A stretch of 64,000 nt of DNA, taken from the NCBI GenBank assembly GCA_964587885.1, contig CAZPME010000003.1, positions 40,996 to 104,995 on the forward strand. Reading direction: 5' to 3'. Within the stretch, counting starts at the first letter, position 1. The number at the start of each line of letters is the position of its first letter. Below the pieces are notes generated by a model. It did no database searches and was not told the DNA's origin. It was given only the letters and a program-made list of their open reading frames with translations. Source of the stretch: an uncultured Candidatus Poseidoniales archaeon (GTDB lineage: Archaea; Thermoplasmatota; Poseidoniia; Poseidoniales; Poseidoniaceae). Below, piece by piece: positions 5,177 through 56,256 of this stretch. Made by a program: the position numbers and the translations under genes.

Positions 5177-7117
5177 CTATTCTTCAGACTGTTCTTCAGG
5201 CTCTTCAGAGGATACTTCTTGTGGTTCCGAACCTACTAATTTCCCATCACTCAAGTTGAATTCTGCAACCAACATTATTGGCTCACCATGAGACAGTTGC
5301 GAATTATATTCATGGAATGTTCCCTTGACGCCGGTGATTAATTTGAATTGGGTTGGGTCCTTGGTTCGGAACTTCTTATGCTTCTTGTAGTGATGTACGT
5401 AGATTTTGTATAGGCCATCTTGAGAATCACCAATATCCCAAACCACATTTTCGACAGGTTTCTTGGTATCGGGTTTAACGTTGGCATCGACGTCTAATTC
5501 ACCTTTGCACTGTGAGAGTCGGTTACCACCGTGGATTCTCTCACCAGAAGGGCAGACAACATGAAGATCAAGATCATTGTAATTATTCCACATCAATGAG
5601 ATGTTGATATCACCGATTCGACCTCCAGCTTCTTCAAGCCGGCGGCGCAATTCTGCCGCAGTTTCTTCGGCCACCTCTTCGGCACGGATTCTTGCTTGTT
5701 CAGCAGCTTCGGCTTCAAGGCGGGCCGCTTCTTCTTCTGCAGCGGCGATCTCGGCTAGTCTTTGTTCCTCAGCGGCAGCTAGATCTGCTTGCCTTTGTTC
5801 CTCAGCTAAGCGTGCTTCTTCTGCTTCAGCAGCCAATCGTGCTTCTTCTTCGGCTTCTGCAGCCAAACGTGCTTTTTCTTCAGCCTCGGCTTCAGCAGCC
5901 AATCGTGCTTCTTCTTCTGCTCGAGCCTTTTCTTCAGCCTCACGTTCAGCAGCCAATCGTGCTTCTTCTTCTGCTCGAGCCTTTTCTTCAGCCTCACGTT
6001 CAGCAGCAGCAGCAGCTTCCATTTCTGCCAATATTGCCGCTTGCTCTTCTGGTGTTCTCTCTTTCATTTCAAAGTCAGTTACCAACATTATTGGGTCACC
6101 ATTTGATAATTCAGAATTGTATTCGGTAAAGGTTCCACCAGCATTTACGATAACCTTGAACTGTGTAGGATCCTTGGTTCCTCGCTTCTTGTGCTTTTTG
6201 TAATGATGAACATATACCTTGTAAATACCATTAGGAGCACTACCGAAATCCCAAACAACGTTTTCGACAGGCTTTTTAGATTCAGGCTTGACGTTGGCGT
6301 CAACATCCAATTCGCCATCACATTCTGATTTTCGGTTGCCACCGTGTAAGCGTTCACCTGAAGGACATACTACATGGAGATCAAGATCGTTGTAATTATT
6401 CCACATCAGTGACACGTTTACATCACCTATTCGACCACCTGCTGCCTCAAGACGGGAACGTAATTCAGCAGTAGTATCTTCGTCAACCTCTTGGGCTTCG
6501 AGCATTGCTTCAGCCTCGGCCAAGGCAGCTAATTCCGCTTGACGCTGCTCTTCTAGAGCGGCCAATTCCTCTTGGCGGATTCTCTCAGCCTCATCAGCGA
6601 GTCTTTGTAATTCGGCTGCTTCAGCAGCTAAACGCTCCTCTTCCTCAAGACGCAGGCGCTCTTCTTCAAGGCGGGCAGCTTCGGCTTCAGCCTCACGCTT
6701 CTGACGCTCTTCTTCGAGTTTGGCACGCTCTTCAGCTAATTCCATCTCCTTGAGACGTGCTGCTTCAGCTCGAATTGCCGCTTCTTCAGCCTCAATTCGT
6801 CGTTGACGAGCTAATTCAGCCTCAGCAATTCTCATTTGCGCTTGAGAACGTGCGCGATTACGACGCGAAACTAATGCTAAACGCTGCTCAATTTCCTTAC
6901 GAGCCTCGCGAAATTCAGGACCGGTTCGGCGCTTACTAAAACGTGAATAATCGTTAGCGTCAAGCCTGCGACGTTCGGAAGCAGGTACATCACCGCGCAC
7001 CAATAATACCCAGACTCCACCTAAAAATGAAAGCCCGAGTAAACCAATCATCATCCACTCGCCAGTCTCCACCATGTTCAACCCACCATCACCAAGTATG
7101 TTTAGACTATTGCCCAC
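5177..7117 (-). CDS. N-terminally membrane-anchored coiled-coil protein carrying two copies of a conserved ~125-aa module (WNNYNDLDLH / CPSGE / GELDVD / VHHY / TKDPT)
   Basis: 646 aa with one TM near the N-terminus (IGLLGLSFLGGVWVLLV) followed by R-rich stretch. Long E/A/R/L heptad-like segments precede module copy 1 (aa ~227-353) and copy 2 (aa ~498-624), then an acidic tail. Start codon lies 6 nt after the FtsX permease stop. Confidence 0.6.
   Translation of the reverse strand: MGNSLNILGDGGLNMVETGEWMMIGLLGLSFLGGVWVLLVRGDVPASERRRLDANDYSRFSKRRTGPEFREARKEIEQRLALVSRRNRARSQAQMRIAEAELARQRRIEAEEAAIRAEAARLKEMELAEERAKLEEERQKREAEAEAARLEEERLRLEEEERLAAEAAELQRLADEAERIRQEELAALEEQRQAELAALAEAEAMLEAQEVDEDTTAELRSRLEAAGGRIGDVNVSLMWNNYNDLDLHVVCPSGERLHGGNRKSECDGELDVDANVKPESKKPVENVVWDFGSAPNGIYKVYVHHYKKHKKRGTKDPTQFKVIVNAGGTFTEYNSELSNGDPIMLVTDFEMKERTPEEQAAILAEMEAAAAAEREAEEKARAEEEARLAAEREAEEKARAEEEARLAAEAEAEEKARLAAEAEEEARLAAEAEEARLAEEQRQADLAAAEEQRLAEIAAAEEEAARLEAEAAEQARIRAEEVAEETAAELRRRLEEAGGRIGDINISLMWNNYNDLDLHVVCPSGERIHGGNRLSQCKGELDVDANVKPDTKKPVENVVWDIGDSQDGLYKIYVHHYKKHKKFRTKDPTQFKLITGVKGTFHEYNSQLSHGEPIMLVAEFNLSDGKLVGSEPQEVSSEEPEEQSEE
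5246..5626. repeat. intragenic direct repeat copy B (encodes module copy 2), partner of 6059..6439
   Basis: Encoded peptides are ~80% identical over ~125 aa. DNA is visibly similar (e.g. ccacatcaatgagatgttgatatcaccgattcgacc vs ccacatcagtgacacgtttacatcacctattcgacc). Confidence 0.7.
5828..6001. repeat. in-frame tandem repeat with two perfect 54-bp units (5894-5947, 5948-6001) plus a degenerate upstream unit
   Basis: Unit agcagccaatcgtgcttcttcttctgctcgagccttttcttcagcctcacgttc is repeated exactly. It encodes the 18-aa coiled-coil repeat AEREAEEKARAEEEARLA. Confidence 0.85.
6059..6439. repeat. intragenic direct repeat copy A (encodes module copy 1)
   Basis: See partner 5246..5626. The 54-bp tandem repeats lie between the two copies. 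Confidence 0.7.
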
Positions 7118-7123
7118 ATATTC

Positions 7124-9586
7124 TCAGTTTGAAAACTCCTTTACTTTGTCAACTAAGTTCATTTTCTTGATTCTCCAAACCCCAATCGGGGTCAACAATA
7201 ACGAGATAGTCACGACGATTCCAATCAATAGTAAGATCACAGATGAATCAGCCTGCACTGTAAAGAAAAACGACCATTGAACCATTTCTGCGATTAACAT
7301 TTTTGTTCCGACAATGGTAATGATGCAACCAAATATTCCACCCACTAAACCAATCGCAAAGTGCTCCCCTAGCATCATTTTGCCAAGACTATTGGTCGAT
7401 GCCCCTAATACTCGCAGGGTTGCCAATTCACTATCTCGCTCGGCTAAATTCATCATCAAAGTATTGAATAATACTGCTGCTGCGATTACAATACCTAATA
7501 GTAAAATGGCGTCGAAAATTTGTTTTTGTGTTTCCATTAAGGCATTAAAGGAGTCGAGAAAATCCTCTTTCATACTAATGCCGACCGACATTTCTCCTAA
7601 TTCCGTATCAATCTCAACCCCAGTTGGTAATTGTAATAATACCGATGTCGCTTCTAATCCAGTCAATTCTGCTAATTCGGCTCGATGGAAGTACACAGTT
7701 CGAGATATCTCACCGGTGGTTATTCCTGAAATTTCGACGACTTGCTCCTTCGAGCCTATTACTATAGTTTGGTACTGTCCGACCTGCCAATCAAGAAAAT
7801 GTGCTGTGCCTTCATCTATCAGTACTTGAGGCGGATTTTGGCCGGATTTAGGTAATTCTCCTTCATCTAAATTCAATAAAATCATCGCTGATTCACCTTG
7901 AGTCGCAAAATTATCCATTCCAAAAGCGGTCATCTGCCTTGCATCATCAGCAGGATTTACCGGGAATTGGAGCAAATATTCGTAATCTGCACCGTTCTCT
8001 TGCGCCCATTCTCCCACCGCCGCCTCACCAGCAAAGGGAACGAAAACTTGAGCCTCCCAATTTTGATTTTCATCATAATCACGGACCATTACTTCTTCCA
8101 TCGAATCCATCATAAGAAACATCGACCCAAATATCAGCATCGACATACCGACTGCAATAAAGGTGAAAGCGATACGGAAGGGTTTGCGAATACTTGAACG
8201 CAAGGTCAAGCCAACCGAAGCAGGTAACTTGGCGGTCAATTTCTGAATACGTCGGGAGGAGAGGCGTACTTCGTGTTGGCCTCGTAAAACTTTGAGCGGG
8301 TCGAGGCGTGAAGCCTGCCAAGCCGGTCTAATTCCTGATAATAATATTACGACCATGGCAATAGAAACATTTGACAATACTAGAGAATAATCAATAGAAT
8401 CATCAATTGCTGGTATACCAATCACATTTTCATACATCTTCACCATTGCTGGCGCACCGACATACACGCCTAACAATACTCCAATGGTACAACCGATGAA
8501 ACCTATTACGATTGGAGCAAGAATGTATGCTGGCATTATCTTCCTGCGAGATACCCCAAGGGTTCGCATTACTGCGATTTCTTTGGCCTGCGATTGTATC
8601 AATCGTTGGAGGCTGAGAAATATCGTAATTCCAGCAACCATCGCCAACATTCCGGTGATGAATCCGTACGATTTCTGTGCTCCTTCAGCATCAGCCCGCA
8701 AAAATTCAACCGAGTCAATTCCCGAACGGTCATAGACCATCGCTTTAATCTCCTCATCTTGCGAAATAATTGTGGCGACCTGAGTCATTGCTTTGCCCAT
8801 TTTTTCACCTTCGTTGATCTCGGTCGAAAGCAAATCATATTCCGGTGTGCCTTCCAAATCGAGAAGCAACCGGTTAGTTGAACCGGAACTCAAGTTTGCT
8901 AGTTTATTCAGACCCTGTTCAGTAAGATATCCGGAGGCAAAGGTACCGGCTTGAGCCGGCATCAATTCACCTTCAATAGTGAAATACAGGTGCTGAGAAT
9001 GGAATCCTATTCCAACGACAGTGAAATTCATCCTGCCATGACCAGCCCCAATAGAAATGACGTCTCCAATGCCTATTCCCATACCATCTGCAGCATGTGA
9101 GTCAAGTACTATTTCATTATCAGTTTGGGCCATCCTGCCTGCACAACATTCATCTTCGGGTATCCAAACACGGTCTATTCCGCCTTCATCAATGCCGTGC
9201 CAAACCGAGACCACCATATTCTCATTACCAGAATCTGATTGATGATACAATACTCCATCGAGAATTAATCGAGCCTCGCACTCATCCAAAGTTAATTCTT
9301 GGTTATCCCATTGCGAAAATAGTTCATCGCACAGCTTCATACTTGTGGATTGATTCCATACTTCACTCGGGTTTTCCACCCAAATATCTGCCAGATTCAT
9401 GGTCTCTGGAGTATCCGAATATGCGTATTCATAGATATTTGTAGCAGTATTAGCATAATATCCTAATGAAATCCCGCCGAAAACTCCGATTGCAATCATC
9501 AACCAAACCGCGGAAAGACGAAGTTTGGTGCGCCATAGGCTCCGAGCAAGGCGCTTTGTCAGCAATCTTGACACTGTATCACTCAC
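7124..9586 (-). CDS. ABC transporter permease, duplicated FtsX/MacB-type (8 TM, two large extracytoplasmic domains)
   Basis: 820 aa with two FtsX-like halves. Each has an N-terminal TM, a large external domain and three C-terminal TMs (..IRPAWQASRLDPLKVLRG..). Overlaps the ATPase gene by 8 nt. Confidence 0.75.
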   Translation of the reverse strand: MSDTVSRLLTKRLARSLWRTKLRLSAVWLMIAIGVFGGISLGYYANTATNIYEYAYSDTPETMNLADIWVENPSEVWNQSTSMKLCDELFSQWDNQELTLDECEARLILDGVLYHQSDSGNENMVVSVWHGIDEGGIDRVWIPEDECCAGRMAQTDNEIVLDSHAADGMGIGIGDVISIGAGHGRMNFTVVGIGFHSQHLYFTIEGELMPAQAGTFASGYLTEQGLNKLANLSSGSTNRLLLDLEGTPEYDLLSTEINEGEKMGKAMTQVATIISQDEEIKAMVYDRSGIDSVEFLRADAEGAQKSYGFITGMLAMVAGITIFLSLQRLIQSQAKEIAVMRTLGVSRRKIMPAYILAPIVIGFIGCTIGVLLGVYVGAPAMVKMYENVIGIPAIDDSIDYSLVLSNVSIAMVVILLSGIRPAWQASRLDPLKVLRGQHEVRLSSRRIQKLTAKLPASVGLTLRSSIRKPFRIAFTFIAVGMSMLIFGSMFLMMDSMEEVMVRDYDENQNWEAQVFVPFAGEAAVGEWAQENGADYEYLLQFPVNPADDARQMTAFGMDNFATQGESAMILLNLDEGELPKSGQNPPQVLIDEGTAHFLDWQVGQYQTIVIGSKEQVVEISGITTGEISRTVYFHRAELAELTGLEATSVLLQLPTGVEIDTELGEMSVGISMKEDFLDSFNALMETQKQIFDAILLLGIVIAAAVLFNTLMMNLAERDSELATLRVLGASTNSLGKMMLGEHFAIGLVGGIFGCIITIVGTKMLIAEMVQWSFFFTVQADSSVILLLIGIVVTISLLLTPIGVWRIKKMNLVDKVKEFSN

Positions 9587-10265
9587 TCAATTTTTCATCT
9601 GCGATAATCTTGCCACTGTCTAGACGTACCACTCGAGTTGCAAATCTTGTTAAAGATTCATCATGTGTGACCATTATCGTGGTAATTCCTTCTCGTTCAC
9701 AGACTTCCCCTAATACTTCCATCACCATGGCCGAGGTCGTAGAATCAAGATTGCCAGTTAATTCATCACCGAGTAATAATTTCGGGCTTTTGGCTAGGCT
9801 ACGGGCGATTGCAACTCGTTGTTGCTGACCACCACTGATTTCGGCGGGAAAACGATCTACTTCACCCTCTAGGCCAACCATCAATAGCAATTCACGTGCT
9901 CGCTGTTCATCTCGTTGCCCAGACATTTCTTGTATCAATAATACATTCTCTAGTACCGTTAAGTCTTGTAAGAGGTTAAAAAATTGGAAAACATATCCGA
10001 TATTTTCTCGCCGAAAAGTAGTCATCACCTCGGATTCATTTCGGGGCACATCACGCATATTGAAGGAGTAATCACCAGCTGTAGGATTATCCAATGCCGC
10101 GATACAATTCAAGAGCGTTGTCTTACCAGAACCTGAGGGTCCAAGCAAGATTACTCTCTCACCAACCTCAATTTCCAAGTCGACACCATCGAGAGCTTTA
10201 ATTGTCTCAGAAGCCATTTCATAGTGCCGTGTTATCCCTTGCATTTGCAGCAATGAGTTAGACAT
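9579..10265 (-). CDS. ABC transporter ATP-binding protein (MacB/LolD/FtsE-like)
   Basis: Walker A LLGPSGSGKTTLLN, signature LSGGQQQRVAIARSL, Walker B LLLGDELTGNLD. Confidence 0.85.
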   Translation of the reverse strand: MSNSLLQMQGITRHYEMASETIKALDGVDLEIEVGERVILLGPSGSGKTTLLNCIAALDNPTAGDYSFNMRDVPRNESEVMTTFRRENIGYVFQFFNLLQDLTVLENVLLIQEMSGQRDEQRARELLLMVGLEGEVDRFPAEISGGQQQRVAIARSLAKSPKLLLGDELTGNLDSTTSAMVMEVLGEVCEREGITTIMVTHDESLTRFATRVVRLDSGKIIADEKLSE

Positions 10266-55326: not shown

Positions 55327-56256
55327 TCAATCTTCAGCCCAAGCATCTTTCTTTTGATCGGGATGACTTGAAATTGTGAATGTATTTATCGTCTTCATTG
55401 GATCACCTTTGGAAATTTTTCCTTTGTATTGTTTCACCTTTTCACCAATCCGAACACGGACTTTGAACTTGGTCGGGTCTTTGGTTTTCCAACGCCGATG
55501 TTTTGCATAGTGGTGCACACAAATTCGATAATCGCCAACTGGTGGCATCACTTCCCAATACACATTTTCAATAGGTTTGCGAGAACCAGGCTTGATATTC
55601 ATATCTATGTCGAGTTCGCCCCCACATTCTGAGTTTCTATTATTGAAATAAATACGCTCTCCCGATGGACAAAATAAGTGTAGGTCAAGGTCATTGTAAT
55701 TATTCCAAAGAAGCGTGACTTGAACTTCTCCAGTCTTGGCACCTTCACGCTCAATTCGCTCAGCAAAATCACCTTCTTGGTCATCATTTTCGTCCACTAT
55801 ATCAATGTCATCTGGGGTTTCATTATTGACATTGACCGAGTTTGCTGCTCGGTCCAATTCGGCTTCTTTATCCCTTATCCACTCGGAACGTAAATCTTCT
55901 AATTCATTTCGACCTTCTTCAGCAACCACAGCATCCTCGCCTTCAGGAGGTTCTTGGGATGGGGGTTTGGTAAGTGGCCTGGTGGGGTCTGGTAAACTCA
56001 ATGTTCGCCATTCAATTTCTGCGCGTGATTGGTTTGGGTCTTCTAACATCTCAACCTGTTCTGGGCGAAAGGTTTCTTGTTGCTGAGACCTCTCAAGTAG
56101 GATATTACGCATTTTCCTTGAACGACGAAACAATAATACTCGAAAAAACCCAAGAGTAAAACCTCCGCCAAGGATTCCCAAATACACTAGAGATAGCGGG
56201 TCCACATTCCCGCGTATAAGAATTAACGTATAGCACCAACGGTGGAGAAATCTCAA
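55327..56256 (-). CDS. membrane-anchored paralog carrying one copy of the WNNYNDLDLH/CPSGE/GELDID/VHHY/TKDPT module
   Basis: 309 aa with N-terminal TM (LSLVYLGILGGGFTLGFFRVLLF + RRSRK), acidic linker, then ~120-aa module. The module is ~55% identical to the two copies in 5177..7117. Confidence 0.55.
   Translation of the reverse strand: MRFLHRWCYTLILIRGNVDPLSLVYLGILGGGFTLGFFRVLLFRRSRKMRNILLERSQQQETFRPEQVEMLEDPNQSRAEIEWRTLSLPDPTRPLTKPPSQEPPEGEDAVVAEEGRNELEDLRSEWIRDKEAELDRAANSVNVNNETPDDIDIVDENDDQEGDFAERIEREGAKTGEVQVTLLWNNYNDLDLHLFCPSGERIYFNNRNSECGGELDIDMNIKPGSRKPIENVYWEVMPPVGDYRICVHHYAKHRRWKTKDPTKFKVRVRIGEKVKQYKGKISKGDPMKTINTFTISSHPDQKKDAWAED

Follow-up and report, generated by a model that had tools for sequence, protein, structure and literature searches.

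YfaP of Escherichia coli is a periplasmic protein that has a signal peptide, is encoded in the yfaS alpha-2-macroglobulin operon and carries a C-terminal domain known as YfaP_C/DUF2135 (PF09906, COG4676). Further relatives are found among the C-terminal domains of subtilases, of which the jelly-roll domain of Tk-SP has two Ca2+ bound and stabilises the enzyme (PMC3599501, PMC12664993). Here we describe a module related to these domains that occurs in two genes of a 64,000-nucleotide stretch of DNA, referred to below as the window, from an uncultured Candidatus Poseidoniales archaeon (contig CAZPME010000003.1 of assembly GCA_964587885.1, positions 40,996 to 104,995). Poseidoniales rank among the most abundant archaea of the plankton, and to our knowledge none of them has been cultured. 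Gene 1 encodes a long and gene 2 a short paralog, and both products are unlike E. coli YfaP in its periplasmic location, signal peptide and operon. The window shares 92% identity with 'Euryarchaeota archaeon UBA60'.

Profile comparison places the module, which measures ~125-135 residues and which a first-pass annotation of this DNA had left unassigned, as a divergent member of the named YfaP_C/DUF2135 domain family. The decisive profile (A2) comprised nine sequences, namely the three window modules and six close metagenome homologs, with YfaP excluded; hhalign matched it to E. coli YfaP (NC_000913) with a probability of 96.7% and an E value of 4e-10, module positions 18-94 lying on YfaP residues 143-214. 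The match obtained with a further profile (A3) is not independent, because A3 contains YfaP. BLASTP against E. coli YfaP gave 32% identity (E 2e-9), and the core of the YfaP C-terminal domain, DLDLHV...GxLDxD...GxYxVY, is covered. The likeness extends over the whole module (LxW..DLDLHV.P.GE...G.LD.D....PE...P.G.Y.VY..Y), whereas both Cys residues, the HH pair, the N61/N72 positions and the polybasic loop of the window modules are missing from YfaP. The family name is moreover already attached to close relatives, as members of the 90% cluster of gene 1 are called 'uncharacterized protein YfaP (DUF2135 family)' in IMG and a 70%-identical relative is a 'YfaP family protein [Candidatus Poseidonia sp.]' at NCBI.

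The Pfam gathering cut-off for PF09906 is 22 bits. Gene 1 reached 23.4 bits only as the sum of two sub-threshold stretches, the single modules A, B and C scored 15.6, 14.2 and 13.1 bits, respectively, and gene 2 had no PF09906 match at E<=1. E. coli YfaP, included as a control, scored 66.4 bits, and the relatives P0089 (29.6 bits) and P0090 (24.5 bits) also exceeded the cut-off. The PF09906 model has 48 positions and spans YfaP 199-244, i.e., only the second half of the domain, and the single modules therefore score below 22 bits. No relevant match came from NCBIfam, and none from PADLOC.

A six-frame scan of the window with a hidden Markov model of the module detected it exactly three times, each time on the minus strand, and nowhere else. 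Two of the copies (A and B) are located in gene 1 and one (C) in gene 2 (Table 1), so that the three copies in two open reading frames (ORFs) reported by the first-pass annotation were recovered, and the motifs WNNYNDLDLH, CPSGE, CxGELD[VI]DxN, VHHY and TKDPT could be located in every copy. The span 5246-6439 given at that time runs from the end of B through the start of A. Identities are far above chance, although slightly lower than the ~80% and ~55% originally stated: BLASTP gave 76% between A and B across 136 amino acids (aa; E 2e-83) and 52% between A and C across 130 aa (E 9e-52), while B and C are 49% identical.

Structure prediction with AlphaFold2 from a 12-sequence alignment yielded an N-terminal helix and nine strands (predicted local distance difference test 89.5, predicted template modelling score 0.86), in line with the beta-rich fold expected from the sequence. 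YfaP_C/DUF2135 is a branch of the P-domain/jelly-roll group, to which KP-43- and Tk-SP-type subtilases contribute their C-terminal domains. This kinship was seen both in fold similarity to the solved domains of KP-43, SubHal and Tk-SP and with a broader profile of 28 sequences, which matched SubHal (5fax) at E 2.3e-4, KP-43 (1wmd) at E 6.5e-4 and Tk-SP at E ~0.01, a sequence similarity that is marginally significant only (E 2e-4 to 1e-2). The subtilase domains share with the module the pattern LxW...NDLDLx[VI]..P.G....N.VENV....P..G.Y.[VI].V..Y; unlike the window proteins, they are attached to a protease domain, and they lack the GxLDVDxN motif, the Cys-flanked hairpin and the N-terminal capping helix. 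P_proprotein (PF01483) scored 15.2 and 14.4 bits on the window proteins, under its cut-off of 21, and exceeded it on the relatives P0082 (34.8) and P0085 (30.2); PPC (PF04151) was likewise above its cut-off on P0082 (27.3). Sequence searches of the PDB with a single module and the narrow profile gave only chance-level matches (PKD domains, AglB). The closest folds and sequence relatives of the module are Ca2+-binding domains.

Residue conservation was assessed in 184 diverse modules of the wider family and in 141 Poseidoniales modules from 79 species. In the wider set, W25, D30, D32, L33, P38, G54, L56, D57, D59, N61, E71, N72 and G83 are each conserved in at least 95% of modules, followed by P69 (91%), Y85 (89%) and H34 (85%), whereas Cys37 is kept in 31%, Cys52 in 60% and the two His residues of VHHY in 53% and 60%. 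Hence, the acidic motifs DLDL, GxLDxDxN and PVEN persist family-wide and the Cys and VHHY residues do not, and the invariance once proposed for Asp, His, Cys and Glu alike stands for the Asp and Glu positions, which Asn joins, and fails for Cys and His outside Poseidoniales. Within Poseidoniales, 138/141 modules keep the Cys pair, no variation occurs at H34, H90 or H95, and the second His of VHHY may be replaced by Tyr. The nine-residue loop between VHHY and DPT is polybasic in all 141 modules (KKHKKRRSK, with a mean of 6.7 K/R), whereas the equivalent loop of the wider family is shorter and far less basic (mean of 2.1 K/R).

This pattern bears on the suggestion, made when the module was first noticed, that its His, Cys, Asp and Glu residues form a catalytic or transition-metal centre. 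The near-invariance of H34, C37, C52, H90 and H95 in Poseidoniales speaks for such a centre, as does the co-occurrence of C52 with H90, H91 and H95 in one subfamily, but this co-occurrence is confounded by phylogeny and subfamily structure, and the residues are lost in much of the family, among others in YfaP, in the phage proteins described below and in Lectin_C-type multi-copy proteins. In addition, the alternation of strand 6 would turn the two VHHY His residues to opposite sides, and the homologous or structurally similar domains are all accessory or binding modules and none is an enzyme. We consider this centre very unlikely. The metal-binding half of the suggestion is plausible if the metal is Ca2+, given the Ca2+-binding relatives (PMC3599501), and the catalytic half is not retained.

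On balance, and with modest confidence, we favor the view that the module is a non-catalytic, Ca2+-stabilised YfaP_C beta-sandwich that serves as a binding module for an anionic ligand and is carried on a membrane-tethered charged spacer. The residues conserved family-wide comprise D-x-D where strand 2 begins, G-x-L-D-x-D-x-N where strand 4 ends, P-V-E-N where strand 5 begins and G-x-Y in strand 6. Strand alternation would bring them together at one pole of the sandwich, where one or two structural Ca2+ sites, most likely built from these residues, would give a ligand-binding pole its shape. From the strand order, the conserved acidic residues would share this pole with the His residues and the invariant polybasic loop that Poseidoniales add, so that the ligand would probably be anionic. 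The strand order also suggests that the two Cys residues close the base of a probable hairpin, ERLH-GG-NRKSE, which they flank and which they probably staple, be it as a disulfide or through a bound metal. The product of gene 2 would hold one module and that of gene 1 two on long, charged, Gly/Pro-poor helical or acidic spacers extending from a single N-terminal transmembrane (TM) helix, and both would thus be membrane-tethered binding or spacer proteins rather than enzymes.

The settings in which relatives carry the module support this view. An exhaustive profile search yielded 7,260 cluster representatives at E<=1e-3, of which 4,336 reached E<=1e-10, with 1-12 module copies per protein and lengths of up to 2,500 aa. 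Among species-representative genomes, a relative of the module was confirmed at 548 loci, of which the best 80 all belong to Poseidoniales (MGII) or labelled related archaea. The module stands as an accessory domain in architectures such as GYF_2-TM-linker-module, zinc ribbon-TM-...-Lectin_C, PD40+OmpA and CarboxypepD_reg+NPCBM, and in further, polytopic relatives it is the first loop that holds the module; the settings are mostly extracytoplasmic. The relatives P0107 and P0112 are soluble proteins with coiled-coil-like N-terminal regions and no TM helix. Two further relatives attracted attention. In P0113 (293 aa, from a metagenome), what by eye resembles the N-terminal half of a PurC (SAICAR synthetase)-type sequence is fused to a module, which is probably an assembly or frameshift chimera and not a real architecture. 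In P0127 (387 aa), the module apparently follows an N-terminal stretch with a vWA-like DxSxS motif (LICDCSGSM), for which Pfam gave no confirmation of a vWA domain.

The module is also part of phrog_1735, a conserved phage protein of ~676 aa, in which module and capping helix occupy residues 412-535 (E 4.4e-24). This protein occurs in about 550 phage genomes, including Ackermannviridae, Vequintavirinae, phiCbK-like, Bacillus, Microcystis and Xanthomonas phages, under record names as varied as hypothetical, 'YfaP', 'DUF2135 domain-containing protein' and 'DNA-directed RNA polymerase'. It differs from the window proteins in that the module is flanked by unrelated N- and C-terminal regions and has neither Cys pair nor polybasic loop. 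Neighbouring genes serve replication and nucleotide metabolism, and neither a TM helix nor a signal peptide is present in the protein. A phage protein was also the top Foldseek match in BFVD (Cellulophaga phage phi4:1, E 1.4e-7, TM-score 0.73). These phage proteins, together with some soluble relatives, show that the fold is not limited to proteins that carry an export signal.

On which side of the membrane the archaeal modules reside is addressed by the flanks of the anchor. The first-pass annotation had called the smaller paralog membrane-anchored, and gene 2 indeed has a single N-terminal hydrophobic helix. The orthologs all begin with a few neutral or acidic residues (MDLxSW...), followed by a Gly-rich, highly conserved TM helix and a K/R-rich flank, and in 64/72 orthologs of the long paralog K+R is higher on the C-terminal than on the N-terminal flank; the positive-inside rule therefore predicts an N-out/C-in orientation with cytoplasmic modules. 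This prediction conflicts with the mostly extracytoplasmic bacterial relatives and with the disulfide-looking Cys pair. Overall, we lean slightly towards a cytoplasmic location. The Cys pair itself was rejected as a compartment marker, since it is independent of predicted topology, being equally frequent in relatives predicted inside and those predicted outside.

Two alternatives follow from these opposing signals. The modules might be cytoplasmic, with one or two Ca2+-binding sandwiches tethered beneath the membrane and responsive to Ca2+ or another metal in a TerD-, C2- or synaptotagmin-like manner, and their binding of anionic lipid head groups or nucleic acid would then depend on the cation. 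Besides the short acidic N-termini and the K/R-rich flanks, the polybasic loop invariant in Poseidoniales, the soluble relatives P0107 and P0112 and the phage protein, which shows that the fold is not confined to the cell exterior, are consistent with this. We nevertheless judge it unlikely, as the bacterial relatives are mostly external (YfaP with its signal peptide, GYF_2-TM-module, zinc ribbon-TM-Lectin_C, PD40+OmpA), the near-invariant Cys pair at the probable hairpin base resembles a disulfide, the net charge difference across the TM helix is modest and Ca2+ signalling is not known from experiments in these archaea.

Alternatively, the proteins might be extracellular stalked binding or adhesion proteins, in which the helix would be a signal anchor despite the charge bias and the spacer would span the sub-S-layer space. 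The modules, stapled by a disulfide and loaded with Ca2+, would then have an anionic glycan or a surface partner as ligand. The mostly extracytoplasmic family with its glycan-binding company (Lectin_C, NPCBM, CarboxypepD_reg, OmpA, YfaP), the retention of the Cys pair in Poseidoniales and the acidic, Pro-rich, surface-stalk-like linker of gene 2 argue for this arrangement, and Ca2+ is abundant in seawater. Yet no ortholog has a positively charged n-region, the Cys pair is uninformative about topology over the family, and ER/K-type spacers have been described mainly in intracellular proteins. This arrangement, too, appears doubtful to us.

Several points weigh against the Ca2+-stabilised binding module that we favor. 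The case for Ca2+ is drawn from relatives and conservation and that for clustering at one pole from strand order, and were the modules cytoplasmic, they would meet little free Ca2+ and would be unlikely to form a disulfide, so that a transition-metal or purely structural role of the Cys and His residues would be favored. Foldseek against the PDB returned nothing significant. Homology to TerD, a Ca2+-binding beta-sandwich of tellurite resistance (PDB 2kxt, 2qz7), was considered and rejected at the sequence level (hhalign 12.7%, 10-16% identity, no match of Pfam TerD, PF02342, at E<=1); the link is one of fold only, and the TerD Ca motif GDN(R/L)TGxGxGDDE has no counterpart in the module. The gene neighborhoods of both paralogs, sampled at four metagenome loci and 79 genome loci, suggest no function, and the gene context of bacterial relatives was uninformative, the contigs being short. 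Finally, no YfaP_C family member has an experimentally established function (PMC12356324); our literature search for DUF2135 found no papers, and the YfaP literature was uninformative.

The outcome is a clarification rather than a surprise, as the family had been named earlier and is uncharacterised. Nevertheless, the placement in YfaP_C together with the link to the subtilase jelly-roll and TerD-like fold leads to the predictions that Ca2+ is bound at one pole and that the ligand of the polybasic loop is anionic. These extend to a very large uncharacterised family whose Pfam model spans the domain only in part and which includes a conserved protein of about 550 phage genomes. A more far-reaching version, which we regard as speculative and rather improbable, is that Poseidoniales moved YfaP_C to the cytoplasmic side of the membrane. 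There, one sandwich or a tandem of two, binding Ca2+ or another metal, bearing the invariant polybasic loop and carried on a long ER/K-type tether, would sense or tether anionic lipid or nucleic acid in dependence on the cation. The analogy, and it is only that, is with synaptotagmin-type C2 tandems, which likewise have an N-terminal TM helix but no signal peptide, and whose charged linker leads to beta-sandwiches in tandem, each with an Asp cluster at one pole (for the module, a predicted position) and a polybasic patch; the C2 domain shows no detectable homology to the module and was not among the significant matches. If true, such a tether would be an archaeal analogue of TM-linker-tandem-C2 proteins and the first functional handle on a family of >7,000 clusters that includes a conserved replication-region protein of large phages, and the interest of the finding would rise accordingly.

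Table 1. Coordinates of the module copies and associated features (window positions unless a phage locus is named)
Feature	Position	Strand	Remarks
Gene 1, 646-aa ORF	5177..7117	minus	Acidic N-terminus, TM helix, spacer, module A, spacer, module B, acidic tail
TM anchor, gene 1	6995..7057	minus	aa ~21-41, WMMIGLLGLSFLGGVWVLLV; followed by RGDVPASERRR
Spacer 1	6470..6982	minus	aa 46-216 (about 170 aa); E 25%, A 21%, R 18%
Module A	6056..6469	minus	Gene 1; YfaP_C-like beta-sandwich with N-terminal capping helix
Acidic signature, module A	6293..6403	minus	WNNYN-DLDLH ... CPSGE ... C-x-G-E-L-D-V-D-x-N; family-wide
PVEN, module A	6257-6271	minus	Next after the acidic signature
HHY-KKHKKRGTK-DPT, module A	6164..6208	minus	Poseidoniales-specific polybasic nine-residue loop
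Nine-residue loop alone, module A	6173-6199	minus	KKHKKRGTK
Spacer 2	5657..6055	minus	aa 355-487 (about 137 aa); A 36%, E 33%
Module B	5240..5656	minus	Gene 1
Acidic signature/PVEN equivalent, module B	5444-5590	minus	
HHY-loop-DPT equivalent, module B	5351-5395	minus	
Nine-residue loop alone, module B	5360-5386	minus	KKHKKFRTK
C-terminal tail, gene 1	5180..5239	minus	Acidic, Ser/Glu-rich
Gene 2, 309-aa ORF	55327..56256	minus	TM helix, acidic Pro-rich linker, one module
TM anchor, gene 2	56128..56196	minus	aa ~21-43; followed by RRSRKMR
Module C	55360..55776	minus	Gene 2
Acidic signature/PVEN equivalent, module C	55561-55707	minus	
HHY-loop-DPT equivalent, module C	55471-55515	minus	
Nine-residue loop alone, module C	55480-55506	minus	AKHRRWKTK
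phrog_1735, Klebsiella phage KpS11	L088:3771-5801		
phrog_1735, Brevibacillus phage Sundance	L089:3771-5801		

The two copies in gene 1 had been taken as evidence of a recent intragenic duplication. Our data show instead that the duplication is old: A and B agree at 72% of their DNA positions and at 45.5% of third codon positions, with nonsynonymous divergence (dN) of 0.16 and saturated synonymous divergence (dS), so both copies are under purifying selection. The ortholog P0078 has both copies, its A being 92% identical to window A and its B 86% identical to window B, and two modules are present at the loci of 62/79 Poseidoniales species. Copies within a protein are always nearer to each other than to copies in other lineages, a pattern that points to concerted evolution or repeated duplication and not to one recent event.

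The true start of gene 1 is probably the ATG at 7075, which gives a protein of 632 aa and is preceded by GGTGATGGTGGG; the exact gene sequence is present in NCBI, and the 632-aa form is the one chosen by the majority of gene callers. Ahead of the TM helix, the N-terminus is short and acidic and contains no K/R. Spacer 1, which includes one Gly and one Pro, is predicted to form a long helix of the ER/K type or a weak coiled coil. Neither spacer showed a clear 3.5-residue peak in a heptad-periodicity test, and we therefore call them charged helical rather than canonical coiled coil. Within spacer 2, a 54-bp tandem repeat (5853-6028; 2.5-2.9 copies, 88-96% matches) codes for 18-aa AEREAEEKARAEEEARLA units between modules A and B, and two plus-strand ORFs over this region (5601-6203 and 5692-6129) were rejected as genes, being its low-complexity shadows.

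For gene 2, the N-termini of orthologs suggest that the GTG at 56205 is the probable true start, giving 292 aa. This start yields M-DPLSLVY..., in agreement with orthologs (the N-terminus of P0110 is M-A-D-V...), and abolishes a 4-bp overlap with the OFOR beta gene. The gene lies 3′ of the OFOR alpha/beta genes in the window and also in L005 and L006, and the short paralog was met again at two related loci.

The long gene occupies the same locus in 79 species-level genomes, and in 67-72 of these it is found between DeoC and PurP/TDO. In the window, an 820-aa FtsX-type permease and an ABC ATPase are encoded directly upstream of gene 1 (7124-10265, 6-bp gap). Only 30-31 of 79 Poseidoniales loci have this pair, which therefore looks like a lineage-variable insertion and not an operon partner, and a functional link between gene 1 and the transporter was rejected.

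Two further features of the long paralog were observed. Its TM helix is Gly-rich and near-invariant over Poseidoniales species, LM[IV]GFLGGAFLFGIWFMLV, which suggests specific helix-helix contacts in the membrane. The acidic C-terminal tail, which in the window gene does not contain the motif [AGS]-A-P-[DE]-[LI], carries it in 38/77 orthologs (loci L008-L086; e.g., LPSAPDLDAL), where it may be a docking peptide.

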